A stretch of 64,000 nucleotides of DNA from Acanthaster planci. Taxonomy: Eukaryota. The stretch covers positions 3,830,148-3,894,147 of the forward strand of contig NW_019091361.1 of NCBI RefSeq assembly GCF_001949145.1, read 5' to 3'. A program made the translations under genes and the position numbers. The first letter of the stretch is position 1. Each line of letters begins with the position of its first letter. The notes beneath the pieces were generated by a model that saw only the letters and a program-made list of their open reading frames with translations, did not search any database and was not told the origin of the DNA. Shown in pieces: positions 12,426 to 45,618 of this stretch.

Positions 12426-12456
<31 letters not shown>

Positions 12457-13764: not shown

Positions 13765-13849
13765 GCACGCGACTGTCTGGAAATCAAGCACATCGACTCA
13801 CAGTTTCCAGCAGTCGTTCAGTTTTCTCTCACTGATCCATTGCTGAATA

Positions 13850-16800
13850 ATGAAGCTGCTCGCTCTCTTCGTGTGTGTGGCCTTCCTGTACGGTGTCTCC
13901 TCGGAGACATCGGACTTGGGCGACAGTGCAACTGCGGTGGCTGCAGACGATGCAACCGAAGACCGCGCAGTGGCCGTAGAATTCGATGACTTCACCGAGG
14001 ATGACGACACAGCAGAAATGGACGACGAAGCCGACTTGGATTGGGATGACGATCAGACAGACGAAGATTGGGACGAGGAGCACGCGTTTCCCTTGATGTA
14101 TGAAGACCAGTACCAATACACTGATGGTAAGTAAGCGTATTTCCCATAAAATAGTTTTCTTGGCATCAGCAATCAATTTTGAACTATCACCAAGTACATA
14201 TGCCCCCAGATAAATTGAGCCGTTAGTTTTGGGGACAACGCAAAGTAGAAAAAAATGAAATTTGTTACAGCGTTTAGGAAATGTTTTTTCATTCACAAAA
14301 TATCACATAAATTCCATAATCATTGTTTATAACATCAAGCAAATCTGCCTGTTTTATTTTTTTTTCAAATTTGTGCCTGTCCATTTGATTGGTACTTTTT
14401 CTTTCGCGGGAAGCGGCTACACAGGATCATGTTCACAAACTGTCAATTCTAAAAAAGAGGACTAATTCCCAGGCATGTTGGCCGTGCAGTGTTTCTCGCG
14501 TGCGAGGTTATATTGGGGGTATATCACCCCACACCTTTTGAGGTTGGGGATGGGCTATTGCATCACCCCCCCCCACTTTTTGTGATGAGCAAAAATTAAA
14601 GCGGACTGTGAAGAAGTTTCAGGATTTCCCAACGACTTTAATGTTTGCAATATCACTATTAAAAAGGGAACATCAATTAAAAAAGCCATGAATATGACGT
14701 AAGATTGTGCATAAATTTCATACACGTCACAGATGTACATCTTTACGATGAACATCGCCCCCTATATGGTGTATATGGTGCCACCCCTCCCCCCACGTTT
14801 TTCAAATTTATAGCTGGGCAAGTCATCCCCCCACTTTCCCCACCCCACCTCCAATATCTAACACAAATTTACGTCACTGGGGACTGACAATAATTACGGA
14901 GCATTTTATCTTCTCTTGTCCAAGGTGCAAAGGCATCGGTACTAATCGATTTGAAAAAAACTTTTCTCTATAATCTTAAGCACCTTTTTTTTGTAATTCC
15001 ATGCATTCTATTTTTGATTATTTCCCTCAGCGTTGGAGCCGGCCACTAGTCCCGAAGTTGAGTGGATTCGCTTCAGGTGTCGAGGACTCAGGTGTTGTTT
15101 GTCGACCAGAATCTTCAGAAGGGGATTCAGCGGTAAGCAACTCCCCGATTATTAGACTAAGGGAATAAAATACGTGTTTGACAAGTCTTAAACGTGCGTT
15201 TAAGACCCGCTCCGGAGGACTAGGCATAATCACTTGTCAGCAGGCATCATCAAATGTAAGTACACGGTCAAGTTACACGTTGTTGAGTAGGGAGACTTTG
15301 ATATTTATGAAAAAGGGATAAAGTTTTCTCTGGTTTCTCGGTGGCTTTTGAATCCCATTTTCTCGAACCTTTATTTGCCTATCGTTGCAAAGTCCTGTTC
15401 CGTTGCTTTGGATAATTTTTCTCTCGCTTTAGTCTTTCAAAACACTTTTCGAAGTCTAAAAGTTAAGAAAACATTCTTCATGTAAACGATAACCTAGTTT
15501 GGCCAACTTATGATAAGTCAGAAAGAATATTTTCATTTTGCCGAACTCCCCCGTCCATTTTATTTTAGAGTTGTCCAAAAGAACCTAGTCTATGGACTTG
15601 GCGCAGGCGTGCTGACCTATCACACGGAGACTCTTGACCTATCAGAATCGATTAAACTGTCTCGTATCCAAGCGCCACTGTGTGATTTACGCTGGCAGTG
15701 GGCATTACTTCTCAGCTGGCGTTAGACTGGTTCCCGTCCCGTACGTAGTCTCCAGACATCCTCCGAACGCGGGATCGGTAACGGATAATGAATCCGGAAG
15801 AATCCTGCCGGACGGTAAATGAGGAAATAATGGCCGCTCAATACACTGATCAATCAAAAGCTGATAGCATTATTTTTTTCTTTCTCGTTACCGAAAATAA
15901 CTTCACCATAAATTGTTCCTTTATATACAATGTAACACACTTACCACTGATTTGAAATAAATTGCAGAAATGATTTATGAATGATAATCATTGAAAGATA
16001 AATTACTTTACTTTACTTCAAATATTCTTTTGATTTTACGTGTCGAGTCATCCTGACAGACTCTTCCAAAAAAATCCGCAGCCTGAAAAGTCTGAATTTA
16101 GCATACCTTTATGTATTTTGTGTCTTAACTCCTTACTTTTAATCATCTGATCGTATTTAGAATTGAAGCTGACACATAAAGCCTCGTTTTCCAACGCGGA
16201 AGTGCGCAGATCGATGCTAATAGCGTCGTATTGGGATCCCTCTATTGCACCGATGGGGCCTGGGCTCGAGTCCCGGCTTGGCCCAGGCTTTAAGTGCATT
16301 TGGTTTCCAGTTCATACTCGCTCTCGCAGGTTTTCTCGGGGTACCCCGGTTTCCCCGCCTCTAAAACTGGACCTTGTTCCTAACGTCCTTAAGGTGATTC
16401 GATTAATACATGTTATGAACATAATTCGCAAATAGCCCGAGTATACCTGAAAGCTGAAAGCGCCATTAAAACAAAACAACAACTCCTGCCCGCGGAAACG
16501 TTTTTCGTGTTAAAGCATTGCTTCTGGCCTGACAAAAACTGAAATATTCGGCGTCCAAACTAACAGGGCTTATCCAACACATTAAACCGCAGCTGCTAGC
16601 TACTAGTCTAAACAAACATTATCAAATGTTTAGTACACGGTCAGGTTACCCGTTGTTGAATAGGGACACTGTCTGAGGTATGAGAAAGTTCTCTTTGATT
16701 GTCGATGGCTTTTGAATCCCGTTTGCTCTGACCTTCATTTTGTCATCATCGCAAAGTCCTGTTCCGTTGCTTTAGATAATTTTCTCTTGCTTTCGTCTTT

Positions 16801-18122
16801 CAAAACATATCCGAAGTCCAAAAATTAAATAACAATTAAAAATCATCAATAGTATAAATGCTGACCTAATTTGGCCAACTTGGGATAAGTCAGAGAGAAA
16901 ATGTAATCTTCTTTCTTAAATTAGGTCTTTTTCAATCCAAATTCCTTGTGTTTCTAAACTTTACGAACCATTTCTTTTCAGCCTGCTTGAGGGGCTTTTA
17001 CAGAAATAACAGAATAGGCTACAAAGTGACCGTCAATGGGAGGACTTTTATCCAGAGGTCCGTCAGAGGTAAGATTCCGAGACTCGTACATGAATTTCAA
17101 AGTTTGGATAACTTTTCTCCTCCAGTGAAGTTTGCATGCGAACAGCTGCACGGAAACGGCNGGGCGGGGGTGTGACAAAACTACAAGAAATATTCGAAAG
17201 CATTCGTAAGTGGCAAAAGCCGGGCAGCCCCTTTTTTAAATTAAAGAACGATTACCAACAACTAAATGAATGGATAAAATGAACAAATAACTATATACCA
17301 TCAGCTGATGTTAAAAAAAATTCGATATCGGTTAGTTTTGCATGTGTTAAAAAAATTACAGGAAGTTGTATTCAGGTTACATTTTCATAACAACGTAAAG
17401 TACGCCTACATGCATTCATGAAGAAATATCCCCAGGGAATTATATTCATAAATTTGGGAGGTGATTGATCAGAGATAGAGAGAGAGAGGGGGGGGAGTGG
17501 AGAGAGAGAGATGTTAATTTTTATATTAGAAGTTTGTTTTGCCCTGCAACGGAGTATATTTTTCTAATGCAACGGCGTATATTTTTCTGATGCAACGGCG
17601 TATATTTTTTCTGATGCAACGGCGTATATTTTTTTCTAATGCAAGTATCTTAGAAAATACATATATAGCGGTATGAGCTGCTGATCTGCTCCGAATTTAG
17701 CAGCCGACCCTGGCAAGCTTGGTTAGAGTGATTAGAGTTCTGCCCCAGTAATTAGGAGATGGTTGTCCGGCGCGTCCCAGTGCCATTTTTCTTGAGTCAT
17801 AATGTCTATATAAATTACGCCTGTTAAAGGTGAAACGCCAAGTACCAAAATATTCTTTCGGATTGATTTCCAGGCTGTTCAAAGTTAATATGCACATTTT
17901 CCGTTACTTCACACAGTGGGCGCCAACGAAATCATGTACTGCAAGAAATTCAGAATAGCTTGGTTCCTTAAGAAGACAGTCTGCGCGGGGCTGACCGACA
18001 TCAACATTCGAAGGAACGGATACCGCATTCAACACATCTCGGCTCGAGCCAAGATCCAGGTTAGGGGGCGCCTGGGTTTCACCAAGAAGACCAAACCATT
18101 CACACTTTACCGCCGCCGCTAG
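13850..18122 (+). CDS. Secreted prepro-protein A, 223 aa: signal peptide + acidic propiece + 120-aa highly cationic six-Cys domain (candidate host-defence protein; possibly DUF4773-like)
   Basis: Exons 13850-14126, 15031-15132, 16982-17068, 17917-18122 (672 nt; all introns GT-AG and phase 1; no stops). Basic domain: WIRFRCRGLRCCLSTRIFRRGFSACLRGFYRNNRIGYKVTVNGRTFIQRSVRVGANEIMYCKKFRIAWFLKKTVCAGLTDINIRRNGYRIQHISARAKIQVRGRLGFTKKTKPFTLYRRR*. The same exon structure is conserved in paralog B. Confidence 0.85.
16028..16245 (-). mobile_element. One end of a non-autonomous DNA element (same family as the insert in the Gypsy 3' LTR)
   Basis: Reverse complement of 30379-30600; ends GGGATCCCTCTAT. Confidence 0.75.
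16246..16480 (+). mobile_element. 5'-truncated tRNA-derived SINE
   Basis: Closely similar to 8687-8800 (TGCACCGATG.GGCCTGGG.TCGAGTCCCGGCTTGGCCCAGGCTTT...CATACTCGCTCTCGCAGGTTTTCT); the 3' boundary is approximate. Confidence 0.7.
17545..17645. repeat. Minisatellite, about 4 x 22-26 bp (TGCAACGGCGTATATTTTTCTRA)
   Basis: Direct tandem copies in intron 3 of paralog A; not expanded in paralog B. Confidence 0.8.
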
Positions 18123-19116
18123 ATCCACCACATCGCTCTTCCGATGCTTTAGAATTATAATCGGTTCCGTCGTAATGTTACAGAGTCTCTGTAATGATAG
18201 CGCCATGAAATTGTTGAGTTTTAAGGGATCTTACGTTTCTCTTTTAATTTCTTTTGATTTTTCTCCTCCATTCCCAACCCCAATTTGATTTAAAATTCGG
18301 GCTTTTTTAGTTTGAGAAAAAAAGAGATCTGATATTGACTTCTTTATAGACAAACGTCAAATTCGTATACGCAGATGTCAAAATAATTTATGACTGTGGT
18401 CTCACAACAATAACAACATTATATTCACGCATCCTGTTGCATGAGTTGGGTAAAATATAATGAATTTGGTACATTTGGATTTATGCAATGTTGCTGTCCA
18501 GCTTTTTGTGGGTAAATGGATGCTTTGGAAAGCAGGGAAATTATGTTACCCGGGAATAAATTTTAAGCAAATATTATTGAGATTATCATCAGCAGCTTAA
18601 CAGTCAATAATACTTGCAACTGCGGTTGTTTATGAGAGCATTACATACTGTCTGATGTTTATTTCATTTCGTCAGTCTTGAGGCCTTCTTTTTCGATAAT
18701 AAAGATCCTTTTAGGCCATTTCACCATGGCTGCAGCACACCAGTTTCTACTGAGATCACAAGCACTGCCGTAAAAGTAACTCGCGTGGGTACCAGCGATT
18801 TGTCTCGGCGGCTACACATAGAGTTATATTAAAACAAATTCGTGCAGATAAACCATTTGGAACGGAATACATTTGGTGATAAAACACTTCAAACTAACAT
18901 TTATCAAGTGAACTGGGCATCAGGATTTTTCTTATCAAAAATTTTAACTGTTCCTGTTCTGCAGAAAACAATTGAGAAAAGTGGTACGTTGATGCGGAAG
19001 AATGATTGTTGACAGGAACGAAGTCAATGCATATCACCCCATGAAAATCTTATTCTGGTTCTCTTAGAGATCAAACCCACCTCCAAACTTACCGAATAAA
19101 GTCCAGGAGGCAACAA

Positions 19117-19340
19117 TTACATTCTCCGAAGTTTATTTCACAGCAAAACCCGTAATCATATAGTTATCCGTTCTTCACATTCTGAAGTTTCATTCGGTGA
19201 AAGTACGTGGGATTATACCTACATTCTCTGAAGTTAATTTCACCGCAAAACCCGCAGTCATATGGTTCTCCGTTCTTTACATTCTGAAGTTTCATTCGGT
19301 GAAAGTACGTGACTGGGATTATACCTACAACTCTCTGAAA
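19117..19340. repeat. Tandem duplication of an about 102-bp unit
   Basis: Two adjacent copies of ...ACATTCTGAAGTTTCATTCGGTGAAAGTACGT...; a single copy at the paralogous site about 47655-47760. Confidence 0.8.
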
Positions 19341-19498
19341 ATAATTATTCAAGTAACATTGTCAGGTGTATCCTTGTCGGGCTTTTTTGACGGTGACTCG
19401 CCAGACTTCTGAACCAGTGCAGAATGCTCATCCTGTCTTCTTCCGGCCCTTCCATGCAGCCAAACCCTGCTGGCCAGAGCTCGTCTCCGAGAAGAGAG

Positions 19499-19746
19499 CA
19501 CGGACGTGTATAACAAAATCTGGACTCGCAATGCCTTTAATCAGCTTATAGAGTCATTAAATCCACTCGCGGCAACTTTACCGAGCCGCATACAAAGCTT
19601 TCCTGGCAATGCCCGCCTTTGTTCTTCCTGACGTCAATAGAAGGGAGCCAGCCCACGATTTTGTCTTCGGCTGGGTAAAATGGCCGCTGGTTGGTTTCTT
19701 TTTCATACAAAGGCGTTGCAAGTCCAGGTTTTTATATACGTCCGTG
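19499..19746. mobile_element. MITE with CACGGACG termini and 8-bp TSD (hAT/P-like)
   Basis: About 38-bp imperfect TIRs; TSD GAAGAGAG/GAGGAGAG; clean empty site CCGAGAAGAGAGCAGAC at about 47917-47934 in unit B. Confidence 0.85.
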
Positions 19747-20000
19747 GAGGAGAGCAGACTTCTCCAACAATACCTGGAGGTACTCGTCCGCCTTTGACAG
19801 CCCATCACCGAACCCATGAGGCTAAACATCCTAAATAACATGTTCTCAACTTTGAAACTAGCGCCCCCTGTGTTCCATTTACGTTTATTTTGAATAGTGC
19901 ACTTGGAATCACGAGGGCTGCGTGTTGTGGCATCATAAGTTGCCAGAACGGTTAATTTAGCGACAATGAGTCAATGAAAAGACTTCACGAAGAAATTTAA

Positions 20001-20582
20001 AGGAACCAGGAAATAGAAATATTTTGATAAATTTTACTAAAACCCTTGTAATTGCATCTTTGGGTTTCAATTAACCTGATTTAAAATTTTGTTTTACTAT
20101 TTTTACCCATACTTCGATGCTTTTTAGGTTTTATGTTAATGCTATTGGCATACTTATGAGCAGAACTATTATGTAATCCAAGGCACTGAATCTCAATGTT
20201 GCACTGATCTGTGCACAGAAATTTTCCAGATTTTTTTAACCACTGCTATGGCAGATTTCATTTTCTTTGGCAATTTACTGTTGTCTAAGTATATGGCAAT
20301 AACCCAGCGAAAATCCTTTTCACAGAAATGTTCCCAGATAGCAAATTTGGGATTCACGATTTGAACATGAAAACACGCAACCTGAACCATGCCTTCCTGG
20401 ATTTACGTCAAAGCAAAAGCCCCCTCATTTGTCCAGAAATGCTTGGTCAATTCTTAAAGTTTGAAAAATGCACCGTTCAGTTCATGTGACTCAAAAAAGA
20501 TGTCAAACAGTCTTCATACACGGAAGAAGAGTACAGAGATACACAAAAAGTGATTCTAAGAAAAATTCATTTCCTGGATCCT
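20001..20582. mobile_element. Kolobok-like MITE (AGG...CCT termini, TTAA TSD)
   Basis: TIR AGGAACCAGGAAAT / AGGATCCAGGAAAT; TTAA at 19997-20000 and 20583-20586; single TTAA empty site near 48172; relatives at 1583-2136 and about 61030-61360. Confidence 0.85.
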
Positions 20583-21495
20583 TTAAAGATAAGCTATACT
20601 CTGGGTTTGCAATGGTACAGGAAACCTAAATTGTAATGAGTGGATAAGCCATAAGCATAGATTTTGATTCAGAGGGTTCCATTCAAGGGCTACGTTAATC
20701 TGAGTACAAAAAATACGGTCATGACCATTATTGGATCCGGGAGTCACCGAGGATCATGCACCCCTTACAATAATTTGCTTTTCAAAAAGAGAAAGAAAGG
20801 CGATCTTGGGTGCTTCATTCCCCTGAAGTCTCATCATATCTCAGGAATGCCACAAAAATGTTTGCACACTAAATTTCCCCCACTAGGAAGCGACTTTTGC
20901 TCCAAACGGTTGTGGTTTCCTGTCTTGTGATTGGTCTGTTCATACATAGGCCTATCTAATGCATCGTTCTGGACCTCACAAACGAGACTCATGGTGAGAA
21001 GTTTACTCTCTCGCTTGTTGTTTACAAGTAAAAAAAAAGTTGTGAAACAACAGAGAGGATTTCAAGTCGGGAGTACTTCCAACCAATCCACACATCTGCT
21101 GCCAAGCTCCGGGAATTTAATATACTTTATTATCTAACCACTCTTAAAACCTTGGACAGAATTATGAATAATGCATAAGCATAGAGGGCGCCCTCTTCCA
21201 AAGCTGTTGAATCCACAGACATAAAATTTTATATGGGAATAAACATGTGTTTGACTGGTCTTAAACGCACGTTTAAGACCGGCTCAGGAGAATGGACACG
21301 ACTAATGTTTACCATCGATTTGTAGCTGACTGTTAATCTCTTAGAATTCACGCAATAATTTGGACATAATAAAAGTCAATGGACAGTCTAATTCTGTGCA
21401 GAAACTAACAATCTATTTATTGCTTTAATGACACTTCAATCAGTTTTATGTTCACGGACAATTGGTTTTTGGATAATTATAGTAAATTCTCTATG

Positions 21496-21566
21496 ACAAC
21501 CACAAGTAAACCACAAGGCAAACCACAAGGTAAACCACAAGGCAACCCACAAGGTAACCCACAAGT
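21496..21566. repeat. 12-bp minisatellite (AAACCACAAGGY)
   Basis: About six tandem units; gives the spurious KPQG repeat in the ORF track. Confidence 0.8.
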
Positions 21567-21879
21567 GTCATCCGCAGGTATCACCCACAACTTAAGTTTC
21601 TCACTTATTGTACACTTTCTAGAAATCGGACCCGAGTTAATAGTTTAGCTTTATACTTACGTTTGAATGTTTGTTGGTTCCCAAGATTCTTTATAGAGGC
21701 GTCTATGGAATTCCATAGCCTGGGGCCCTCATGCTTGACTGTATTTTGTGTAAGAGTAGTACGTGCAAAAGAGTGATGAAGTTTCTTGTGCTGTCTGTAA
21801 AAAAATCATTAAAATGAATAGTAATCAAGTGTAGCTATAGATTGCTGGTAGCAATACCTTCTACATCAATAGTACTTAT

Positions 21880-23366: not shown

Positions 23367-23784
23367 TGCAGTGGACTATTTGTTTTCCCGTGGTTCCAAG
23401 TCAACGGCGCCACCGCCGACGGCGGAGTGGCTTCGGCGGCGCGCACCTGGCCTGGTTTTGGAATTTGGCTGGCGTGCGCTCCGGAAATAGGTAGCTATAA
23501 ATAGATCGCTTTAATTAGCTTCAAATTTGTTGGGTACGCGGAAAAGGCTTGGCTGGATTCCAGGGATGAGTCAATTGCTACAATGTTATACTTATCCACA
23601 CGGTGTGCTTTTGTACATGGAGAACGATCAGTTGTGTTTTTGGAAGCTTTGTGGCAGGTAGCCGATCTTAATTTATTAAAACAAGTAACTGAGTTTGGAG
23701 TTTAAAGCCTTGAGTGAACTGTGTCCCCCTTTCCAAGCGTTTGGCTGGATTGAGGGACAAGAGCCCAATTAGGTTTACGCTACA
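23367..23784 (+). repeat. 5' LTR
   Basis: 418-bp direct repeat of 30180-31023 once the MITE in the latter is removed; contains TATAAA. Confidence 0.9.
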
Positions 23785-23786
23785 AT

Positions 23787-23804
23787 TGGTGGCAGCGGTG
23801 GGAT
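23787..23804 (+). promoter_or_regulatory. Primer-binding site complementary to tRNA-Leu
   Basis: TGGTGGCAGCGGTGGGAT, 2 nt after the LTR end; reverse complement of the tRNA-Leu(AAG/TAG) 3' end ...ATCCCACCGCTGCCA-CCA, recalled from memory. Confidence 0.85.
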
Positions 23805-23834
23805 AATTCTTGACTGTTCAACGGAGAAGTTTTT

Positions 23835-25064
23835 ATGGCGAGCTTTACGATGGAGCTCGCAAGAAATGTTGCGGAAGCCATCAGCAACATTTCCACTGAG
23901 ATCGACCGGTTGGAGCGTTCAATTTTGGAAAGTTATGGAGCTACTCGTGGTTCCTCATTAGGAGCCAGGAGACGGCAACGCTGCGTACCGGAGACACCGG
24001 ACCCCCTTTCCAAGGACCATAGCAGCAGGCGACGAAAACCACAAAGCTTGTGGAAGCGCAAAAAGAAACTCGCGTCAGATCTTCGCGAACAGTGGCGGGC
24101 AGTGTGCAGTGAGTCTGACAGTGATGACCACCATTCTGACTGTCCTCAATCTCCAGCTCCGCCCCACCCGACTGAGGCATGCTGCGGTTGCAAACCTCGT
24201 AATGTGGGCGGGCACACGGCATTGCATACTGATACCACTGCTGGTGGATACAGTGCTGCAAATGCGGTTGACCAGCATGCAAACTTGGAACACACCGCAG
24301 CAGCACCGCGAGTAAAGGTTCGAAAGTATGACGGGTCGTCATGCATTGAGGATTACCTGGTGCACCTGGTCAGCAGGATCAACTGTTGGAATCAGGAGCA
24401 GAGGGCGGACTATCTGATGGTCGCCCTGAAAGGCCCAGGGCTGGAAGTTGCATGTTCCTTGCCAAGAGAGTCCCAGTCGTCCTTGGACGAGTTAGTCAAG
24501 GCCCTTGAGCGACGATTTGGGACTGCAAAACATGGCATTCGTCACCGCGCTGAACTGACTTCACGGAAAAGGCGTACAGGGGAGACTATGGCCGAGTTGG
24601 GCCGAGCCATCAGAAAGTTGGTCCGCCGAACCTACCCTTACAGAAGCTCCAAGTTTACGGAGGATTTTGCACTTAAACAGTTTAAGAACGCGCTGGACGA
24701 CACTGACCTCAAACGAGCACTATTCCAAGGGAAGCCGCCGCTTGACGAAGCTGTAGAGATTTTTGCAGAGGCTAAAGCATGGTTCAAGACGGAGAAGGCT
24801 GGACGATCAAGGACAGTTATGTCCAACGCCAACGCGGTGAAATCTGCGGAGCCTGCGCAAACTGATGAGGTGGCAACAATGGTGCGTGAACTTTTGGAAA
24901 TACAGCGCCGTGGCAAAGGAATAAAGAAGGCCGATGACTGGATGCCAGGATGCTGGAGGTGCGGTAGCCCGGACCATTTTTGGGCCCAATGTCCCCACCT
25001 AAAGGACGACCAGCAACCGTTAAACAAGGTAAGGCAGGTCTCAGGGCCGGAAGTCCAGCCATAG
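23835..25064 (+). CDS. gag: Gypsy Gag (409 aa, open)
   Basis: KYDG...YL, retrotransposon-gag helical region, and a C-terminal CCHC knuckle CWRCGSPDHFWAQC. Confidence 0.85.
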   Translation: MASFTMELARNVAEAISNISTEIDRLERSILESYGATRGSSLGARRRQRCVPETPDPLSKDHSSRRRKPQSLWKRKKKLASDLREQWRAVCSESDSDDHHSDCPQSPAPPHPTEACCGCKPRNVGGHTALHTDTTAGGYSAANAVDQHANLEHTAAAPRVKVRKYDGSSCIEDYLVHLVSRINCWNQEQRADYLMVALKGPGLEVACSLPRESQSSLDELVKALERRFGTAKHGIRHRAELTSRKRRTGETMAELGRAIRKLVRRTYPYRSSKFTEDFALKQFKNALDDTDLKRALFQGKPPLDEAVEIFAEAKAWFKTEKAGRSRTVMSNANAVKSAEPAQTDEVATMVRELLEIQRRGKGIKKADDWMPGCWRCGSPDHFWAQCPHLKDDQQPLNKVRQVSGPEVQP

Positions 25065-25090
25065 ATATCCAGAGGCCCAGTGAACCTTAA

Positions 25091-32331: not shown

Positions 32332-32478
32332 AGACATCACATCAAAAACGATTCAGTTGGAGCAAAGTGCGCATAAAATGGCAGTAATTGAAAAAATGGT
32401 CCAACTAAGTAATTTTTGAAAAAGTAGTTACTACATGCGCACTTTGCTCCAGCTGAATAGATTTCTATATGATGTCTT
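32332..32478. mobile_element. Short MITE-like inverted repeat
   Basis: AGACATCA...ATTCAGYTGGAGCAAAGTGCGCAT arms in inverted orientation. Confidence 0.65.
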
Positions 32479-34551
32479 TGAGGTTAGAACTCTTTTCATT
32501 TTTTTTGGGTGGTCATCATTATTGTTATCGGCAAATCAGCATTTTAATGTACCTGGAAACCTCGCTTCTAGAATGGTATAATCATTTTTTTTAATTTTCA
32601 GTCTATTACAATATCTGTTTAATTTCACTTTTAGTATCCCTTGACATTTACAGGAGTTCCCTTTTTCCCACTTGAAGCAACATAATTGCCAGCATATTTG
32701 TTTAGATTTTGATGACGTTTTTATTACAATTCAGAGGTTAAAGTGAGTTTGGACTGCAATCTTTTTACACGGGGGCTTAAATTCTAATATCTTATGTCAC
32801 TTACATGTATCTTATATCAACCTGGCTCACTTCCAAACAGCTTTGCCTTAAGGTTTCAGCATTATAAGTTGTATATTCCCGGATATCCCAGTTCAATGTA
32901 CACGAGCTGCAGGGCCTGATTATTTCGCGTGGATCTGGATCACGATCAGTGACCTGACCTCGGTTCACCGACACCAACGCCAGCGTAGTGGATAGAGCGA
33001 ACCGGATTTGGGATCGTTGTCAAGATCCAGATCCTTGTGAAGCAAACTTGCCCTGTGACATTTACAATTTCAAACCACAAAGGCGACAATGCATAGTCTT
33101 GTTTTCTGGGCACTTTATGTCTGCCAAACTTGTCCAATACTGGGATTAGAGAAGGTCAATGCAATCTCACAGCGACAGAGAGAAATTCGAATCCAATCTG
33201 AATTTGACTTACTTGGCTCAATCTGATATGATCTGATGATAGAATTCGTGTCTCAATCCGAAACCGACAAAGAGTACTGAATCCTTATCCGACAGAATAC
33301 GAATATATATCAACAAAAACCTGATATGTATGTTGCCAGTCACAAGCTTGATTGTAGAATTTATGTACACGTATGTCTGATAACGTTGAAGTCCTAAACA
33401 TAAATTGTTCACGAAGGGTGCAATCCTTGACAAAATTGTTAGGACACTTAGCAATAGCCGTACGCTTTCCAGCCCCCTCCCCAACTCTCCTGGTCGATGT
33501 TGTCATGTCCAGCCGGAGCGTAGACCGCGCATAGACCCAACATTGATAGGGGGTCTGGGGATTGAAGGCCCAAGGAGATTAAATTGTCCGGGATTGTCTA
33601 ACTTGGTTCATAATTGTGTATGTGTATACCACGCCGTTCAGGGGGTGTGTCGTGAAGCGTCGTTTTTAGAAAATACAGGTTTAAAATATATCGCTATTTT
33701 ATGGCCGCACTGTACAATTAAAAGAAGGGAAAACCAGTATCTATTTTTGTATTGTGTAACCATAGCCAAGTGTGTTATTGGGGTAGGCAAATCCTATGGG
33801 GAAAAGAATCGAAATGCATTTTTAGGGGAGTGATTTCAAGGCACAATGGGCGCTTTACAGGGTGTTATGTTTGTGGGAGTACATTGTATTAGATGCTCCA
33901 AAGCATTTCGCCGGACATATATCTATTTTTTAAACATGAAATGTCCATTTAGGACTGGACACACCATAAAACTGTGCGAGATTTCTGTTTTTGAGTTATT
34001 CAGTCATTTTGTCGAGAAAGGAGAGACTCAAGTTCTTTAATGATGTGATGCAGCTCACCGCTGGCAGTGTGCCTTCAACATCGACTCCATGGGCTGCGTG
34101 CGCGTTCCTTCTCTAGCCCTGGTCGTGTAGAATACGAAAATGACGCTGACTGACTATCCAGGATGATTACATCAATCGCGCGTGGGAAGCTGCATGCTCG
34201 CGCCCACACTCTCTTACACGTCACGCACGTGTAAATGCGTCGCACGTTAACACACTCACTAAAGTCCTAATTTAAATTATGCAGTTACCGGGTTACATCG
34301 CGCAAGGCATGGTGGGAACCAACATGGCGCGACAAGATCGTATCCATTGATCTCCAATATGATCGTATCGTACCCATGGGTTGATGCAACCTCGTTCACA
34401 TGGGTGCAATCTTGTCGCCAAGTGAAGGAACGCGAACGCACACGCAGCCCATGAAATCGAGGATGGGTTGGTGTTTTTTATGTATCGCGCGCGCCCTGTT
34501 ATTTTAGAGAGTGCTCCGCGCTGTTGAGTGCACGCATTGATATCCATTCTG

Positions 34552-34792
34552 GGGGCCAATTTCATAGAGCTGCTTAAGCACAAAATTTGCTAAAGCAGAA
34601 TAAAACTTTACTAAATAAACAAAGATTGCCAGCTCAAACTCTATCTGATTGTTATGCTAACCAAAAACAGCTAAATACAATCCCAATACAATATTCATCA
34701 CATGGAGTTTTGGCTGGTTACCTCATTTATCAAGTAAGGTTTTTTTGCGCTTAAGCAAATTTTGTGTTAAGCAGCTCTATGAAATTGGCCCT
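34552..34792. mobile_element. MITE (PIF/Harbinger-like termini)
   Basis: 25-bp perfect TIR GGGCCAATTTCATAGAGCTGCTTAA; the superfamily is only a guess. Confidence 0.75.
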
Positions 34793-37700
34793 CTAGATGG
34801 GACATCGCGTCCAAAACGCGCCCCGCATAGGCGTTTTTGCCGAAGGGTAAATAATAAGCGTTGCGAATTTTGTTGAGGACACTTTCAAACGGAGTTTTCA
34901 AAAATTGGTTGAGGTTATTCTACTTCAGTCGTCAGATGTCGAAGAAAAACTGAATTCTGCATCTGGAATGGTAAATTTGGAAAGAACAATGGTTGAGCTG
35001 TGTGCAGTGAATTGCCAGAGATCGATGCTAAATCAAGTTTGGAAAAAGGAACAGCTTTGGACATGTGATCCATGGCTGCACGTACGTTTCGCTCCCATTC
35101 AACGTGTGGAAATTAATGAATTCGACCGCGCGGCGGTTACATGACCAGGCCCTCGTGAATCATACGGAATTGCCCTTAGCAACTTGCCAATCCTTTTGTG
35201 GAGCCTTCTTGGTTTGAAGACCTCCTTTGCTCAATATTAACAAACAATCACATTGAAACTCTGTGTACGTGGTCTAGAAGGCTTAAAGCGAATAAAACAC
35301 CACAGAATCATGAAAGGAAATGCTACATAAATATGAAATTTAGCCTCAAAGTGGTTGCTAAGATGATAAACTATTTCCATTTCACACTCCTGCGCAGCGT
35401 GATATACCTGTTTTACATGCACAAAACCGATCCAGCCACGTACCGTGCACAGTACGTGTACACTGCTGCTTGTTACACGCACACATACGCCGCGGTACGC
35501 GGGTGTGTACGTGTACATGGAAATTCTCGTTGGAGCTGGTGTTCATGTTAATGTGGTTCATGCATGTATAGTACATGTACAACTGGGGATATATACCGTA
35601 AATTTCAACATTTCCTGGCAATGTTATAATAACAGATAGACCTCGTTTTCAATAATAGTGATGAAAATGTTTCGGCAAGAATTATTACTTTTGAAAAAGT
35701 GAAAATAGCACGCAAATTTCATGAAATGAAGCAGCTGCTTGTCTGGTACGAATTCTCATGGTCCTCAATACATATGCAAATGACCCTAAAATGGGATATG
35801 TGCTGTTAATAATTTTCCTCTTAAACATACGTGGGTGAGGGTGGAGATAATTATACAAGCATCACAATGCTTGTGATGTTTGGAGGGTAAATGCGGTGCA
35901 TTTGATGTTCATTTCAAGTTAGTGTCAATTCGAATTGGCCGATGCCGGAAATTTTTTGCACACTCTAAGTAACCAGACCCTCCCCACACACACCCAAACA
36001 GGTATGCGCGAACTCAGACAATCCTGGACAAAATTGTTGGGACACTTGGCAATAGCCGTACGATCTCCAACCCCTCCACACTCCCATCCCCCCGGTCAAT
36101 GTTATCATGTCCAGCCGGAGCGCACACCGCACGCATAGACCCAACATTGATGGGGGATCCGGGGGTTTGAGGCTAGGCCCGACGAGATTTGTCCAGGATT
36201 GTAGGTCGTAAATAGAGACGTCATCAATAAGTATTTTGGTGTAATCTCAGAGTTTCTTTTGGGCGCAAATACTGATGAACCCTCCCATGTATAAGAAAAA
36301 GTTTCACACAAGTTTCACTTAGGCAATAAAATTATGCGGTTGGAAATATTCACTTTGTTTTAACCTAAGGTGGTCACGCAGTGTCTGCTCACTACTCGTA
36401 AATAATTGTGTTTGGTCGACACAAACCTTTGTCTCATTGTCTGAACAGATAAATGGAGGTCTCCAGAACACACACAGGAAATATTGAGCATTCTGGCAAT
36501 TTATGCTAAGAATTATGCACGTTGAAATCCACCCCACCCCAATTTCCCCAGCCCCAAACCAGCCACCATCACTAAAGCGCACAGCAGAGGTCCACTGGGT
36601 GCTTGCATACTCAAAATCCTGCAGGTGTTGACATTCAAGTAATAGTAGGCTAGCAGTCAGTAATTGCCAGGGCGTCAATCGGTGGAAGACAGGGTGGACA
36701 TGTTCCAACCCCCACTTTCAAAGTGGAGAAATATCCTATCGTTTGCCCCCCCCCGACTTTTCTTCCAGATCCTAAATAAAATGTAGGGGCCTACATTTCC
36801 AGATTTGCTGTTTATATTTCCCAAATCTTTCCTCTTATGGGGGAAAAGTCGGAATGATAAACAAAAAAGGTTCTAAACTTGCATAAGATTTCAAAAGATT
36901 TTCAAAGATAGAAATTATTTCAAAAATGAAAAAAATCCCCCCAAAAGATTTTGCTTTAAAAACAGAGTTAGTGTGGTCAGAACTGCTACAGATCACATTA
37001 CATCAGAGCATGTATACTTCAAATTTCCTGGTGCTCTAAAGTGGACACCAGACCTCATGCCGTTAGGGCTTTGGGCTTCATGCTCCCATCAGTTCTGATC
37101 GGGGTTATGCCCCCCCCCCACACACACACACTTTTGAAAAGCGATTGACACCCATGTTGATTGTTAAACTGGTGTAAGAGAGGCGGTAGACGGCCACACA
37201 GAAAGAGGGATCAGGGAGAGGGAAGTATAAACAAACGAATAAAGTGCTCAGCAACAGGCCAGGGTTTCCCCAGTTGGCCTGGTCGGCACATGAATTAACT
37301 CAACATTATAGGAGACTGTACAGTCTAAAAATTTTACGGTCCTCTACGAAACAAAGAATTTCATGTAAATCGGCTTAAGCAATATGCAAAAATTTAAACA
37401 AAAACACGGAAACAACTGCTAATTTTTAGTGTCTCGGTTGCTCCGAGGGTTCCTGCAATACTCTCGAAAGATATAGAAAATAAATGTCAAGACAGCCACT
37501 CACAATAACAGAACTATTTCAATAAAACCCTTTTACCAGAAAAACAAATCGACGCAATGTTGAATTTATGCGGGTTGGTCCACACTGTTAAAATTGGGAA
37601 CGGTTTTTCATGTAACAACCGGGTTATACTGAATATTCACATGATAAATTCAAATTTCAGGCTTTTGTGACATTTTCCTTAAAAGGGGCGCATCTCGGAG

Positions 37701-39739
37701 GGGAACAAGAGACCAAAAATGGAATACAAACTTAGAAAACTTATTAATTTTCACAGAAAATCTAAACTGTGATCCATCCTCAATATGTACATTCTGTCTG
37801 AAATTCGCGCTTAAAGTCTGTACCACAAGAATTAACTGAGGAAGTCAAATTAAAGTAACATTTAATTAATCCAAAGGTGCCAATTTACATTTTATACTTT
37901 AATATTTCTAACATTCAACCAAACTCATTATCCAAATTATATGCTTTATTTGCTCCGGACGCTCATTTCTGCATTCAGTGAAGTATATAAAACTACACGC
38001 TTTTTCGTGAAGGCCTATGTGAAAACGATGGCAAAAATACATTTAAAAATACACGATTTTCTAATGCATCGTTTTCAACCACATCAAGAAAGGACAACAC
38101 TTTTTAATTTTTCTCCACCCAATCACCAACATCACTTCCTGAAAAGTGATATTGCCCAGCAGAGGACGTTTATCGCCAATCATGTTTTGACTTACCATTT
38201 CAAATTTCAGTTTTGTATCCAATAAAACAAACAAAAACAACATAAAAAATGAAATTAAACTTAAAGGCAAACAAACAAATTAAAAAAAAACAAAAAAGAT
38301 AAAGCAATACGGTATGTCCACATTGTGGAAATGACTGCAAGATGGTAATTAGAAAACTGAAGTCTCGACGCGTAAAAGACGCACTAAGACAAACGATGTC
38401 GAAGGAAATCATGTGGTCGGCGGGCACTTTTGAGTTCAAAATAGCAGGGGTAGGTTTTGCTTGTCTGAGTATACTAGAGATTCACTTGATATAAATGTCC
38501 GGGGTTTTTAGCACTAATAGAAAAATTCCTCGCAGGTGGAATTTGAAAAAAGTCATCTATGAACAAATTGATTTGAATCTACTCATGATTCCAAATTAGG
38601 AAGCGACTCAGTACTTGATGTAAACCAAAATAGCCTTTTCAAGTTAGCGGAACCGGGAAGTGCATGGTGCTCTGTAGACTACCATGCAGATTGACTGATT
38701 TGATGGCTTTGCTGAATGATCAAACTATGCATGGAATATTTAATAAGTACCAGCAGATATTCGGGACAAAATAGAGGGCTTCATTTTAAGGGCACGCAAC
38801 ATTGCAAATGTGACAATACCCAGAAAATGAAGGGAAAAATAACAAAAACAACAGCGACAACAACCAAATAATGCAGGCCAATTCCAGGTTGGTTAGTGCA
38901 CAGGTATTCATTGGGACCACATAAGCAATTCTTTCAGATTCCTAAATTTTTCAAGGCTATTTCGTCACGACGTGTAATAAATCTGGGGTTTTTATTTTGA
39001 AAAACTTTTCTAACGATAATGGTCAGTTTGTCAGTGTTTGATACACTGCACTCGGATCTCCGAGCTACACGGCATGCAAAAGTCTCATTAAATTAAGGAA
39101 GTAAAAATCCTGACTTATCTTAACAAATAATCAGTTAACCAGGGCCATTACACAAAATAGGTGATCGTAGGCAAGGGCTGATCAGGGGGACGGCGACGGG
39201 GGCTATTCCCCCAAGAGGAAGCCCCCCCCCCCATTTTTTTTATGAATAAAGAAAGGCAATTCTTTTGTCTTTTTTCCTTTCCCTTTCTTCCAAAGCGTGT
39301 AAAAAGCCCCCCAATGTAGCCTCAGCCCTTAAAAAGGCCGTTAAAGCTAATATGAAAAAACGTCTGCCCCCCCCCTTGACAAAACTAGTATCCCATCAAA
39401 AATGTGTTTCTGGATCTACCACTGACTGGAGAGGCGCCAAGTATTCCGTCTTTCCATTTCAATTGCCATCTGATAACCATTCCAAATATTCAGAAATTCT
39501 CCGATCTGTAAGCTATACCCCGAAAGAGGCATTTTGTTTGTACTACTTTTGAGCTTCCTATAACAAGGCATGATTAGAGGGTACCATGTGTAAAAACCAA
39601 TCTCAACATTTTCACTCGGCTGCAGACTTATAGTCTGTCAACATTCACAGTTCTCAAAATTCCACCTCGTATTTCTTAGCCTAATCAAAGGCGGCTCGTT
39701 CTTTTGTAAGAATGTGTCTATCATAATCACACCCTGTCT

Positions 39740-40200
39740 TATGGCGTGCAAAGTTAACATTTAATCTGCGTATACAGATATCATCTCTATTAGGAATTGA
39801 GATATCTCTATTCCTAATAGAGATATCTCGATTGTACGTCCTGTTTTAATAGAGACATCTCCATTATGTTTCCGGTTCCGCACACAACAGGAAGGACATT
39901 GAAAACGTATAAAGCACAAAGTTTCACTGAACCAGGGGGTTGTGTAAAGTTTCCTAATGTAATCAATCACGGCAGTACAAGTACTGGGACACAGATTCAA
40001 AACCCCTCAAGATAACAGATTTTTCAACACAAAACGGAGAGGGCGGCCAGCTGACCTCGGAAGCGGTAACTTAATTAATTAATATAGATATCTCTATTAG
40101 GAATAGAAATATCTCTATTCCGTGAATAAATGTTAACTTGGCACGTCCAGGAATAGAGATATCTCTATTCTGGGATTAAATGTAAACTTTGTACGCCATA
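39740..40200. mobile_element. IS3EU-like non-autonomous DNA transposon
   Basis: TIR TATGGCGTRCAAAGTTWACATTTAATC; 6-bp TSD CTGTCT/CTGCCT; subterminal AGATATCTCT repeats; empty site near 12600 in unit A. Confidence 0.75.
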
Positions 40201-41097
40201 CTGCCTCGTTATGCTGCAGCGCCACGATGTCAGGATCTATAGTCTCATTTGGCGAAGGCCACACTGGAAACGAGACTAAACTGGAACTTTTGTTATTATA
40301 CCTGTAGTCAGCTGGATTTCGGGTTGCCGAAGCTTGGAAACTCAAGAAAATTGTGCGGCCCCCTCTTTTATTCATTAAGTTTATTCGACCCCTTTTTGGC
40401 TCTCTGACATCACGAATCTTCTCTTGTTTTAATTTAAAAATCAACCCCCCAAAATTACGTTAGCTGTGTGATAAATAGGGCAACAAAATATCTGAAAAAT
40501 ATAAAGAAGCATCGGTGTTAAAACACACACAGGGTGTTCTCCCCATTGAGTTGCATCGGACATAGCTGTTGTTCGCTTCATGGCACTGGTAGTACATTCA
40601 ACGTAATAAGGCCGGATCATAATAAGCTCGAAAGCGAACGCAGATATGTGACGTCATATCAAAGGCTCTGAATTCGCAAAAGCTTGACACATTTCGAATC
40701 CAGAAATTGTGCTGCAAATTATTTGTAACGTCAAAGTTGCTTCACTTTCATATTCGCCTGTAGTATCAACCGGCCTGTAGGCTTGACTGATTATTTTCAA
40801 GTGTGAAATTGCGAGTGAGGCTCGTATCTGCATTGTTGGTACACTCATATTTACCACCGCTTGTCTATACGGGGCAATTTGGTAGGTCCAAAGTATCGAA
40901 AACCCGCCCACATGGAGGAACTTGCAGTTGTGTGGTTCAATTGATAAATATATGATTCAAACTTTATGACCGAATTTCTAAATGGCTGAAAACGCTTATC
41001 ACGGCCTTGCTACCAGTAGGAAGGGTTGAACATTTCTAATAGTTTGATTGACAACATATATGGAAGCTTGGAAGTCAATTAACCAATTTTCAGTAAA

Positions 41098-41124
41098 CCA
41101 CGCCCTTTCCTCAATCCTATAATA
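41098..41124 (+). promoter_or_regulatory. Putative core promoter of paralog B
   Basis: CCACGCCC and TATAATA (41118-41124) at the same spacing from the ATG as in paralog A. Confidence 0.5.
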
Positions 41125-41209
41125 GCAGGCGACTTTGCGGAAATTGAGCACATCGACTCACAGTTTCCAGCAGTCGTTCAGTTTTCTCTTGCTGATCCAC
41201 TGCTGAATA

Positions 41210-44200
41210 ATGAAGCTGCTCGCTCTCTTCGTATGTGTGGCCTTCCTGTACGGTGTCTCCTCGGAGACATCAGACTTGGGCGACGGTGCGACAGTGGTGG
41301 CTGCTGACGATGCAACCGACGACCGCGCAGTGGCCGTAGAATCCGATGACTTTACCGAGGATGACGACACAGCAGAAATGGACGACGAAGCCGACTTGGA
41401 GTGGGATGACGATCAGGATGACGATCAGACAGACGACGATTTGGACGAGGAGCCTGCGTTTCCCTTGATGTATGAAGACCAAGACACTGACGGTAAGTAG
41501 GCCTGAGCGTATTTACCATCAAATAAATAGTGTATTGGAATCAGCAATCAATCGAATTGTCACCATGTCCATACGCCTCCGGGAAAAAAATGAAAAAAGA
41601 AAAAAGAGCCTCTAGTTTTTGGCGACAACTCTAAGTAGCAAAAATAACATTTGCCAGAGCTAAAATGATTTATCAGCCAAAAAATCTTCAACGACCCCAC
41701 GAAGTGACAAAAACTTGGAAAATCGATATTTCCCGATCTTTCACCAAGACTAGTAAAATGCAACAAAATTTGACAATTTTTTCGCCCGCGTATAGGCTCA
41801 AAAAGTGACAACGACAGACGACGCGCGACGGACGACGGCAAATATAGAATTCCCTACCGTTATAATGGAGATCATTAATGCAATAGACTTTATTCACGGG
41901 GCCGGTCATATTGAATTTGAAAGCGAGGTTAACTCTTCTCTTTTGAATGTTGAGAGTACAAATAAAGAAATAAAATGACAATTCTTGACAAATTTGCATC
42001 TCTCTACACTGATGAATAATTTCAAATTCATGACTGAGCACATAGAATTGCACCTCGTCTGCCAGATTCCTAAAAGTTTTGAAAGGGAGGCTTGAAACGC
42101 ACGGAATTATAAAAAGTCTGGTGCCATCCTTAATGACAGTTTGCAATATATAAAACAGGTTTGTGGAATCAGATCAAAGATCAAAAACGTGAATAGAGTA
42201 TACAGGGGAAGAAAGTAAGACCTCCAGGTTTTGCAACCTTACAAACTGTAAAAAAATGTTAAACGAATTGCTGTTTAATTAAAACAAAAAAATCTACAAA
42301 GTAGTGTGGATCAGCATTTTCTAAACCTTATACTCAATAAAACAAAAGTGGTCGAAAATGCGGAATAAAATAGGTCGCATTTTAAACGCGTTTTTCTTGG
42401 ATATCTGTTTTGCACGATTCTCATCACTTCGTGAGAGCGTCGACGAAATATCACATAAATTCCATAAGCACCGTTTGTGAAAATCAAGCAAATCTGCCCT
42501 TTTGACCTGTACTTTTCGATCGCGGGAAGTGCTACACGGGATCATTATGCACAAAATGTCGGTTACCAAAAAACGAGAGCTACTCCCCAGGCATATTGGC
42601 CATGCATTGTTTCTCAAGTGCGATGTTAAAACAGAGAATCGCGACATCCACAACCGGGGCGCTGACGCGATGTGATTTCTACCCAGGGTTCTGAATGTCA
42701 AAGTTAAGAAATTCAGCGAAGCATGGGTAAACAGCATTCAGTGCAAATGCGAAAAGCATCTGAATTGGTAATGAATTCGTCACTCTCATCTTCACCAGTT
42801 CAGCTAAATGGCTTTGAAAAGGCGAACAAAGTGACGCAAAGCATTGGCATTTTGATATTCAACTTGTTGGGATACTATAGGCCAAAAAAGACTCCGGTCC
42901 AAAAGTGGTTTTTTTTCCCTCTCATTTTTTTTTTGCTTTAGTAGAAGTGATGTTAGAGCGCATGGCCTTGTTACTTTGAGAAGTGTGAATTAACAATTTT
43001 GAATAAATAAAAAGACCATAAAATATTACAACAGGCAATGGATTCAGTCATCTCACTCATACAAGTGCCTCTTTTCTTGGTAAGATTGAGCTTGTTAAAA
43101 TACTGTAGTGGAACCACATAGGAGAAATTAAATGTGAAAAAGACACGTTCAGCTCCAGTTTCCGGTCTTAAATGAAATTTTCGTGGAAGAGGTAGCAGTA
43201 TATGACATATTTTGCGCAGCGTTTTCTGCTTTAGCTTAGACGAAACAAGTTGCACCTCAAATATGAAAAAATAAATGAAAACAGTTCAGCTCCAGAGTCA
43301 AAATAAAAATAAAACTCTCATGATTTAGAAGATATACTGTGCACATTATTTCCGTTTTAGCTGATAAGAAACAAGTTGCATATAAAATAAGCTAAAACGG
43401 AAAACAATGTGCACAGTATATCATCTAAATCATGAGAGTTTTATTTTTATTTTGGGGGGAAAAGTTCAGCTCCAAAAACAAAATCTGCTCTCACTGTAAT
43501 CTACCTTTGTTGTTGGCAAGTTGACGATGCATGCATTGTTACATGTATGGTTATTATAGCACGATGTCCATCGCCACTGCATGCGTATGTTACCGCTACT
43601 GCTTACCCGACACTGAAATAGACTGGCCCCTTACGGTTGGTTGCTTAAAAACGTTTTCAATTTGTATATATAAGCAGAACGTAAGACCACTTCGTTTGTC
43701 TGGTTCACAGACGTGGGCCCAAGTCCGAATCAATTGGCCACTCAGCCCCAACCATCAAAAACACGTTAAAATTACCCAGTAGTAGAATTCCTGCCGATCA
43801 AGTAGGTTTGGCTGCTTCTGGAAATCGTTTTAAGCAAAATAAAAGACCTCTTTATTTTGCCGCCGCGCAGGTCTATGGCGACGCGTGCGGCGACCAGAAA
43901 CTGGAGACTTTTTTTGGCCTAATGGTGTTGGGAGATTTAGGACGCTTACCATCACCGATTTGGCGTCATACAGTTGTAAGCATGATGTTCACTTTCGCTC
44001 AAGTGGTACAAAAATCGGACTGGCAATTACTACGACGCGGTTTATCTTCTCTTGTCCATGCTAACCCCAAAGGCATCGGTATAAATCATCAGATATCATC
44101 TCTCTATGATCTCAAGCATCATTTTGTTATTCCATTCTGTTTTTGATTATTTCCCTCAGCTTTGGAAACGGCCACTAGTCCCGATCCCGAAGTTGAGGGA

Positions 44201-45618
44201 CACGGTCGTTTCAAATGTCGCGGACGCCGGTGTTGTTTGTCTAGGAGGAGATTCCACGGTAAGTACTCCCTGACATATTAATGCTAAAGCTCTTTGTTTT
44301 TTGTACCATCTTTCAATGGCTTTGAAACCCGTTTGCTCCGACTTTCATTTTCATGTCGTTGCAAAATCCTGATCCGGTACTTAGATAATTTTCCCCTCGC
44401 TTTAGTCTTTCAAAAGTATATTTGAAGTCCACAGATTAAATACCAGTGAAAAATCCCCGAGTTTGGCCAACTTATGATAAGTCAGAAAGAAACTGTAATT
44501 TTCCCCCAATGAGTTAAATCGTTTTCAATCCATTTTGTATGTGTTTCTGTATTTTTACGAACCGTTTACTTTCAGTCTGCGTAAGGGCATCTTACCGACA
44601 AGGCAAAATAAGATATAAAGCTACCATCAATAAGAAGCATGTTGTCAGGAAGTCCTTCAAAGGTAAGATTCCTAGGCTTGTATGCGAATTTCAAAGTTTG
44701 GATAACTTTTCTCCTGCATTGGCGTTTGAATGAATAACAGCTACGCGGAAAACGGCGGGGTAAGGGCTAGACAAAACTATATACAAAAAATGTTCGAAAG
44801 TGTTCGTACGTCTTACGGGTCGGGTAGCGCCCTTTTTAAAAACGGATATCAACGAATAAAACAAATCAATTTATATATCTTAAACTTATGTTGCGAAGAA
44901 AATCAGTTTGTTTTTGCATATGTTTAATCAAAAAGTTAGTCAGAATAAAGCGTATTCAGATTACACGAAAACTCCATGTTCAAACTGGACGATTGTTTTC
45001 ATAATGTGGAAACGTGCATTTCTGAAGAAATATCCCAAGGAATTATAATCATGAATTGGGGATAGGTTTTATCATGGAGAGAAAAGATCTTGATTTTTAT
45101 ATTGGATTTTATTCCCCTTCACCGACATAATATTTTTCCGATGCAAACACAAAATCTTTACAAACATATTTGACAGCGGTATCAGCATCTAATCCGCCTT
45201 GAATTTTGCAGCCAATGCAAGCAAGCATGCTGAGGAGATGGTTACCCTGCGTCCCAGGGCCATTTTTCTTGAGTCATTTAGTGTCTACATGTGTATACGT
45301 CTGTTAAAAGCGAAACATCCGGTATCCAAATATTGTTTCAGATTGATAGCAGGCTGTCCAAAGCAAGACAGTAATGTGTACCTCTCCCGTTATCTCTCCA
45401 CAGTGGGCGCCAACCAATCGATGCGCTGCATTAAAATCAGACGAGGTTGGTCAATATTCAGGAGGCGCAGGAGAGTCTGCGTGGGCCTAACCAGTATCAG
45501 AGTCCTTGGCAAAGGAAGTTGCATTCGGCACATCTCGGCTCGCGTCAAGGTCCAAGTCAAGGGGCCGCGGGGTTTCACCAGGAAGTCCAAACGAATCAGA
45601 CTTTACCGCCGCCGCTAG
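41210..45618 (+). CDS. Secreted prepro-protein B, 227 aa: signal peptide + acidic propiece + 120-aa highly cationic Cys-containing domain (paralog of 13850-18122)
   Basis: Exons 41210-41492, 44160-44258, 44576-44662, 45404-45618 (684 nt; GT-AG, all phase 1; no stops). Basic domain: GHGRFKCRGRRCCLSRRRFHVCVRASYRQGKIRYKATINKKHVVRKSFKVGANQSMRCIKIRRGWSIFRRRRRVCVGLTSIRVLGKGSCIRHISARVKVQVKGPRGFTRKSKRIRLYRRR*. Confidence 0.85.
42878..43921. mobile_element. Probable non-autonomous DNA transposon with TAGGCCAAAAAA termini in intron 1 of paralog B
   Basis: TAGGCCAAAAAAGACTCC / reverse complement TAGGCCAAAAAAAGTCTCC; no clear TSD; contains an about 150-bp internal palindrome at 43301-43453. Confidence 0.5.

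Follow-up and report, generated by a model that had tools for sequence, protein, structure and literature searches.

Strongylocins, centrocins and alpha-defensins are products of coelomocytes or leukocytes. Propiece and mature part balance each other in charge in alpha-defensins and cathelicidins (PMC4571063), the anionic propieces of centrocins and strongylocins are likewise charge-balancing (PMC10608444), and propieces in the group of strongylocins, centrocins and alpha-defensins measure 16–30 amino acids (aa; PMC4805251). Human proMBP-1 is a larger precursor, its 222 residues including an acidic propiece (17–106) and a 117-residue cytotoxic domain, a C-type lectin with an isoelectric point (pI) of 11.4 and a charge of +15; MBP-1 disrupts pathogen and vertebrate membranes alike (PMC11483036). 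These and all other articles are cited here from excerpts of their texts and supplements. We describe a tandem pair of apparently undescribed genes, A and B, in a stretch of 64,000 nucleotides (nt) from Acanthaster planci (RefSeq assembly GCF_001949145.1, contig NW_019091361.1, forward-strand positions 3,830,148 to 3,894,147), the whole of which we call the window. Both encode a secreted precursor in which a strongly acidic segment precedes a hyper-cationic cysteine domain that, judged from sequence and predicted structure, derives from the DUF4773 family.

Gene models and precursor layout

A preliminary description of this DNA, drawn from the letters alone, had proposed a tandem pair of four-exon genes with in-frame splicing. 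This proposal stands to the exact coordinate, with the exons arranged as follows.

13850–14126, + strand: gene A exon 1, signal peptide (residues ~1–18) and most of the acidic segment; identical to RefSeq XP_022108848.1
15031–15132, + strand: gene A exon 2, end of the acidic segment and start of the domain (C-x4-CC); identical to the RefSeq protein
16982–17068, + strand: gene A exon 3, domain strands and fourth Cys; identical to the RefSeq protein
17917–18122, + strand: gene A exon 4, stop codon and the C-terminal half of the cationic domain, which is DUF4773-like; 100% identical to the RefSeq protein
41210–41492, + strand: gene B exon 1, identical signal peptide and longer acidic segment; 90% aa identity with gene A exon 1
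44160–44258, + strand: gene B exon 2, GT-AG, phase 1, homologous to gene A exon 2
44576–44662, + strand: gene B exon 3, just 34% aa identity with gene A exon 3
45404–45618, + strand: gene B exon 4, extra (seventh) Cys and LYRRR-stop end

The ATG of gene A starts at 13850 and the last stop base of gene B is 45618. All six introns are GT-AG and phase 1, exon lengths change from A to B by +6, -3, 0 and +9 nt with the frame kept throughout, and both reading frames are open and terminate in the LYRRR-stop that had been called invariant. The spliced products of 223 aa (A) and 227 aa (B) have 148 identities in an alignment of 217 residues (68%). The gene A model equals RefSeq XP_022108848.1 (LOC110989054, Acanthaster planci) letter for letter, and this record was the sole match that a protein search with gene A exon 4 returned among 20 candidates. 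Because there is an independent RefSeq model and the two segments are collinearly similar, chance is excluded and the gene models of the pair are real; the splicing pattern predicted for gene B comes from paralog conservation alone.

The cysteines are spaced 4,0,12,35,13 in A and 4,0,8,35,16 in B, as first described, except that a seventh cysteine of B, 13 residues beyond the sixth, had been missed. The domain that carries them, put at 120 aa in the preliminary description, is present in both proteins. It measures 119 aa in A, with 32 K/R and 2 D/E (net +30, pI 11.8), and 118 aa in B, with 42 K/R and no D/E (net +42, pI 12.0). Ahead of it lie a signal peptide of 18 residues, with its cleavage point judged by eye, and an acidic segment, whose length is 86 aa in A, with 35 D/E and 1 K/R (net -34), and 91 aa in B, with 40 D/E and 1 K/R (net -39). 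Phobius and SignalP calls in a published supplement, for a 223-aa model matching LOC110989054 (PMC11093393), bear out the expected secretion. The anionic segment, which had also been proposed, nearly cancels the charge of the domain, and the uncut proteins are close to neutral (-4 in A, +3 in B). AlphaFold2, run on A with a five-row alignment, gave a predicted local distance difference test score (pLDDT) below 50 for residues 1–94 and an all-beta domain at residues 102–221 with pLDDT mostly 70–87. For the domain of A alone the mean pLDDT was 76, the five models spanning 49–76. Neither predicted model (domain alone, full protein) contains a helix of four or more residues, and hydrophobic and basic residues alternate along the domain strands.

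In plan, A resembles proMBP-1 (PRG2), with a signal peptide, an acidic propiece of ~90 aa and a disulphide-bonded basic domain of ~117 aa, in totals of 223 versus 222 aa. The pI of the starfish domains is 11.8–12.0 against 11.4 in MBP-1, and their charge is two to three times as high. MBP-1 has a C-type lectin fold with two helices, whereas the starfish domain is predicted to be all-beta and has no PDB sequence match, and cleavage and cytotoxicity are established for MBP only, A and B being known here from sequence. By analogy of design, we regard proMBP-1 as the closest architectural analogue and the resemblance as convergent. Strongylocins, centrocins and alpha-defensins share with the pair a signal peptide, an anionic segment and a cationic, cysteine-containing part in charge balance. 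Their segments are 16–30 aa rather than ~86–91 aa and their mature parts short rather than 118–119 aa, however, and A and B match them in neither sequence, profile nor cysteine pattern. If this inference holds, the pair acts by design in the manner of proMBP and defensin precursors, yet lies outside those families.

Relationship to DUF4773

The cysteine domain had been considered unassignable and a candidate new family, an assignment that the searches revise. A profile of the A domain and the B exons, compared with 1,835,955,588 protein representatives at E ≤ 0.001, gave two matches, namely A itself and a second A. planci protein, XP_022084548.1 (LOC110975967; E 3.5e-6). B would cluster with A at 50% identity in this library, and its annotation status is not readable from it; the result suggests that close cationic relatives in other species are scarce within the searched representatives. 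XP_022084548.1 scores 28.6 bits against Pfam DUF4773 (PF15998), a small margin over the gathering score of 27 and a one-step link for A and B. The A/B profile aligns to XP_022084548.1 with an hhalign probability of 98% over 88 columns, and BLASTP aligns A with it at 35% over 207 columns, from signal peptide to domain end (pairwise E 5e-33). Shuffle controls against the same protein (2000 each) reached maxima of 54 for the A domain, 56 for the B domain and 56 for the A N-terminal part, compared with real scores of 175, 70 and 110. In an independent ESM Atlas structure search, DUF4773 clusters came first both for A residues 105–223 (template modelling score, TM, 0.73 by query over 110 residues, with predicted models on both sides) and for XP_022084548.1 (TM 0.81). 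Pfam DUF4773 itself was not matched to E 10 by full-length A or by any of the eight single-exon translations of A and B, and an NCBIfam scan gave just a sub-cut-off match.

XP_022084548.1 has 8 cysteines; its domain carries a net charge of +1, its N-terminal segment one of -6, and its hydrophobic C-terminal tail looks glycosylphosphatidylinositol (GPI)-like by eye. A and B share with this paralog a homologous signal peptide, N-terminal segment and domain, with a matching predicted fold. They differ from it in having 6–7 rather than 8 cysteines and no hydrophobic tail, in a domain charge of +30/+42 against +1, and in an N-terminal segment that is far more acidic. Five cysteines align (the CC pair and the three next), and there is one further N-terminal cysteine in A/B versus three in the paralog. 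Because the cysteine framework is only partly shared with the 8-Cys protein, we describe the domain, on sequence and model comparison, as divergent DUF4773-derived rather than as a canonical member; the pair is a hyper-cationic branch of a known, functionless family and not a new family. The likely starting point is a near-neutral DUF4773 paralog, probably with a GPI tail, from which A and B would have been derived as the tail was lost, K/R accumulated and both halves gained charge; we take this direction of change from the wide occurrence of DUF4773 and not from a rooted tree.

Residues 66–87 of the gene A protein (window ~14045–14110) carry an aromatic-spaced motif, W...DQT.E.WD..H.....Y..Q, that is common to XP_022084548.1. 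This part of the acidic segment is predicted to be disordered in the models, and the motif may be a binding or processing signal that predates the charge gain.

Searches for other families and folds gave little. No named antimicrobial family matched A or B in Pfam or in the PDB sequence search, in line with the preliminary description; the PDB sequence search gave 0 matches at E ≤ 10, and full-length A matched no Pfam lectin. Foldseek returned 0 matches at E ≤ 0.001 from PDB and viral libraries, and 0 of 353 pattern matches from a metagenome scan with exon 4 were confirmed. Word-indexed protein searches, which are insensitive here, found only the query's own record (1/20, 1/11 and 1/14 candidates). 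A shares three five-residue words with B and one with XP_022084548.1, too few for such searches to inform on the annotation of B or on relatives in other starfish. The best solved structure among 48,161 chains was the N-terminal beta-sandwich of FAIM (PDB 3mx7; Z 7.8, root-mean-square deviation 3.1, 88 aligned residues, 9% identity); the next unrelated row had Z 5.6, and unmatched models typically reach a best Z of 7–8. With Z < 8 the likeness may be just a common strand arrangement, and no function is read from FAIM, an intracellular protein. Feature matches from ESM, including a giant-virus cluster, were all < 0.9 and were set aside as noise. The accessions and motifs of the gene were not found in the main texts of the searched literature, which lies outside subscription journals.

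Divergence between the two copies

Exon 1 differs little between A and B (nonsynonymous divergence, dN, 0.044; synonymous divergence, dS, 0.155), while the domain has dN 0.34 (0.26–0.44) and dS 0.40 (0.25–0.60). The domain ratio, 0.86, does not show positive selection in the sense of dN/dS > 1. Second codon positions differ at 37/114 in the domain and at 4/90 in exon 1 (p 3e-7), and the domain value is higher than that of alignable intron columns (178/896, one-sided p 0.002); four-fold sites (7/25 vs 5/35) show no significant difference. The 55 domain replacements include 14 in which K/R in B stands for an uncharged residue in A and 5 of the reverse kind. Despite this divergence, the cysteines, the LYRRR end and the hydrophobic residues along the strands are conserved. 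The pattern is consistent with either diversifying selection at some sites of the domain or weak constraint.

Rapid divergence and high positive charge would also suit a gamete-recognition or sperm protein, similar to other basic, fast-evolving proteins of spawners. Published expression of the likely gene A model is somatic and extends to both sexes and to winter animals without visible gonads (PMC11093393), and we hold this explanation to be very improbable.

Proposed function and expression

We propose, with a rough probability of 0.45, that the pair are surface antimicrobial defence proteins, stored neutralised and cut on secretion, whose cationic domain coats the oral surface. The acidic segment, predicted to be disordered, would hold the polycationic domain harmless in the secretory pathway. 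The precursor would be cut upon secretion and the domain freed at the body surface, where this DUF4773-type, predicted all-beta sandwich would bind bacterial envelopes and other polyanions and form an antimicrobial or antifouling coat on the oral side. We suggest a neutralised precursor because the charges of segment and domain track each other in 3/3 related paralogs (-34/+30 in A, -39/+42 in B, -6/+1 in XP_022084548.1) and because the architecture is that of proMBP-1; neutralisation, cleavage and antimicrobial action are all argued from analogy. Other DUF4773 proteins appear in defence-like secretions, which would favour the same function: one is a marker of oyster macrophage-like haemocytes (PMC12064177), one was found in octopus skin mucus (PMC11431876), and one ranks third in abundance among the transcripts up-regulated in locust pleuropodia, beside lysozymes (PMC6966819). 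A more specific version is possible but somewhat doubtful. Here a membrane-tethered, neutral DUF4773 protein would have lost its anchor and gained 30–40 positive charges with a matched acidic safety segment. It would have become a convergent MBP-like weapon, a killer protein on the coral-facing surface that is abundant, evolves fast and tolerates salt.

Expression was taken from passages, one section and supplement rows of PMC11093393, including some files in part. Model gbr.659.4.t1 of that study (223 aa, secreted, top match LOC110989054 at E 3e-162) is likely gene A in another assembly. Its gene, gbr.659.4, is expressed more strongly on the oral side (radial nerve, sensory tentacle, tube foot) than in aboral tissues. 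Trait correlations with coelomocytes are -0.45 and -0.56 in summer and -0.06 in winter. Low expression in summer coelomocytes sets the likely gene A model apart from the coelomocyte-made strongylocins. A Pfam-positive starfish DUF4773 model, gbr.227.10, behaves in the opposite way (+0.32 to +0.46 with coelomocytes), which, as with the oyster, octopus and locust proteins, would favour a defence role in the family. A second model, gbr.434.1, has 134 aa, the same RefSeq gene as top match, a profile near-identical to that of gbr.659.4 and enrichment in tube feet. Gene B read through intron 2 gives exactly 134 aa; as gene B, however, gbr.434.1 should be ~80% similar to A, where the table gives 97.67% and marks the model as non-secreted. 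The two models occupy rows 27 and 28 of a table of 9,159 genes, with an unstated sorting rule and with myosin heavy chain, apolipophorin and HSP83 among the entries at its top; at a guess, both are highly abundant.

An oral-side, external, non-coelomocyte bias fits surface defence and mucus or adhesive roles equally. In the main rival explanation, the polycationic domain, once freed, would be a structural cross-linker for mucus and tube-foot adhesive of sulphated or acidic character, and the acidic segment would do no more than stop premature coacervation in the granule. The oral-side bias of gbr.659.4 and the tube-foot enrichment of the related gbr.434.1 (PMC11093393) favour such a cross-linker, and the K/R-rich flatworm cohesion protein Mlig-ap1, which polyanions block, works in this manner (PMC6410801). 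The adhesive proteins known to act in this way, however, are thousands of residues long and repetitive (PMC6410801), gbr.659.4 is outside the tube-foot-specific list (PMC11093393), and residues that change this fast in a domain both small and folded are a trait more of effectors. In the main text of a sea star footprint catalogue, a term search found no mention of proteins that are rich in arginine or carry positive charge (PMC9382459), which is a weak argument. Taken together, we consider the cross-linker rather unlikely.

The same tissue pattern bears on the idea that the pair lyse or deter eukaryotes (coral tissue, parasites, predators), acting on animal membranes as MBP does, which we judge quite improbable. 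MBP-1, the closest architectural analogue, also disrupts vertebrate membranes (PMC11483036), and the species is a venomous corallivore that contacts its prey on the oral side. Expression is oral and not spine-biased, though, and no sequence match was found among solved structures. Accession and motif matches to A or B were found in 0/3 supplements of one spine study (PMC10448888) and in 0/2 of another, on the Acanthaster attractins (PMC11957666), a weak negative as both use other gene identifiers. The attractins (oki.327 cluster) are, like A and B, tandem, secreted, lineage-restricted starfish proteins, but they form a seven-gene, spine-enriched cluster with other conserved residues (PMC11957666).

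Several points weigh against the proposed surface defence. Correlation of gbr.659.4 with tube feet is weak (+0.15 to +0.21), and the excerpts of PMC11093393 report immune functions as enriched in aboral, not oral, tissues. Where segment and domain meet, neither A nor B has a dibasic or R-x-x-R site that would support the supposed cleavage, the first such sites falling within the domain, unlike XP_022084548.1, which has Lys-Arg directly before its domain. The charge co-variation involves three related sequences only. The bootstrap for the domain gave P(dN≤dS) 0.73, with relaxed constraint possible, and the intron blocks were picked for alignability, a bias toward the faster-domain result. In the searched full-text literature, outside subscription journals, the three papers that name DUF4773 do so in list entries and give it no tested function, and its Pfam, InterPro and PANTHER accessions were not found.

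The missing conserved cleavage motif at the junction and the near-neutral charge of the whole protein would both suit an uncut polyampholyte of 205–209 aa, acting in granule packing or as an extracellular matrix or cuticle protein of oral epidermis and nerve cord. Up-regulation of gbr.659.4 in winter radial nerve (PMC11093393) agrees with this idea, which leaves the ~eightfold faster second-position divergence of the domain relative to exon 1 unexplained and seems to us unlikely.

Tandem duplication and surrounding DNA

The two genes lie in duplicated segments, each with a TATA-like motif, and no third gene copy was seen in the 64,000-nt window.

8328–20883, + strand: duplicated segment, first copy (gene A); collinear blastn blocks against 32619–49953
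32619–49953, + strand: duplicated segment, second copy (gene B); collinear blastn blocks
13756–13762, + strand: TATA-like motif 94 nt upstream of the gene A ATG; putative core promoter
41116–41122, + strand: TATA-like motif at equal distance upstream of the gene B ATG; putative function

The motif of gene A sits in a 300-nt block that is 92% identical between the copies. The 51 nt 3' of the stop (18123–18173 vs 45619–45669) differ at 2 positions between the paralogs (4%), compared with ~25% in the adjoining exon and ~20% in introns, and are possibly a constrained 3' untranslated element of both genes.

A degenerate Ty3/gypsy-type long terminal repeat (LTR) retrotransposon, its coding region split into several frames, lies between the gene copies at 23367–31025. 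Its LTR-like direct repeats (23367–23786 and 30180–31025) are 85–91% identical, with an insertion in the second, and enclose a gag-like open reading frame (23814–25064) and integrase zinc-binding and C-terminal domains (27780–29104). Within the element, a GC-rich array of 21-nt tandem repeats (25083–25343) can be read on either strand as open frames rich in Pro and Ala. Several palindromes or inverted repeats that look like small non-autonomous DNA transposons are found at 43299–43454, 49069–49210, 34539–34806 and 32329–32480, and at 43607–43925 with 46030–46372. The first of these lies within intron 1 of gene B, which is ~1.8 kb longer than that of gene A. The assembly has a gap of ~850 N at about 59320–60170 and smaller N runs at 32042–32048 and 17161.

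Implications

DUF4773 is a widespread secreted domain of invertebrates with only passing list mentions in the searched literature, and the pair offers a testable function for it. New in the pair are the domain charge of +30/+42 and the acidic segment of -34/-39, predicted to be disordered, compared with +1/-6 in their relative. This neutral paralog, XP_022084548.1, is a built-in control for the surface-defence proposal, which predicts an active domain and an inert precursor. If true, the proposal would mean a clean convergence on the charge-balance design of proMBP and defensins with an unrelated fold, in a very highly charged folded protein that has to work at seawater salt. It would also assign the DUF4773 fold its first function, add a new scaffold to those of cationic host defence and make the pair a candidate factor in the surface defence of a major pest of coral reefs.

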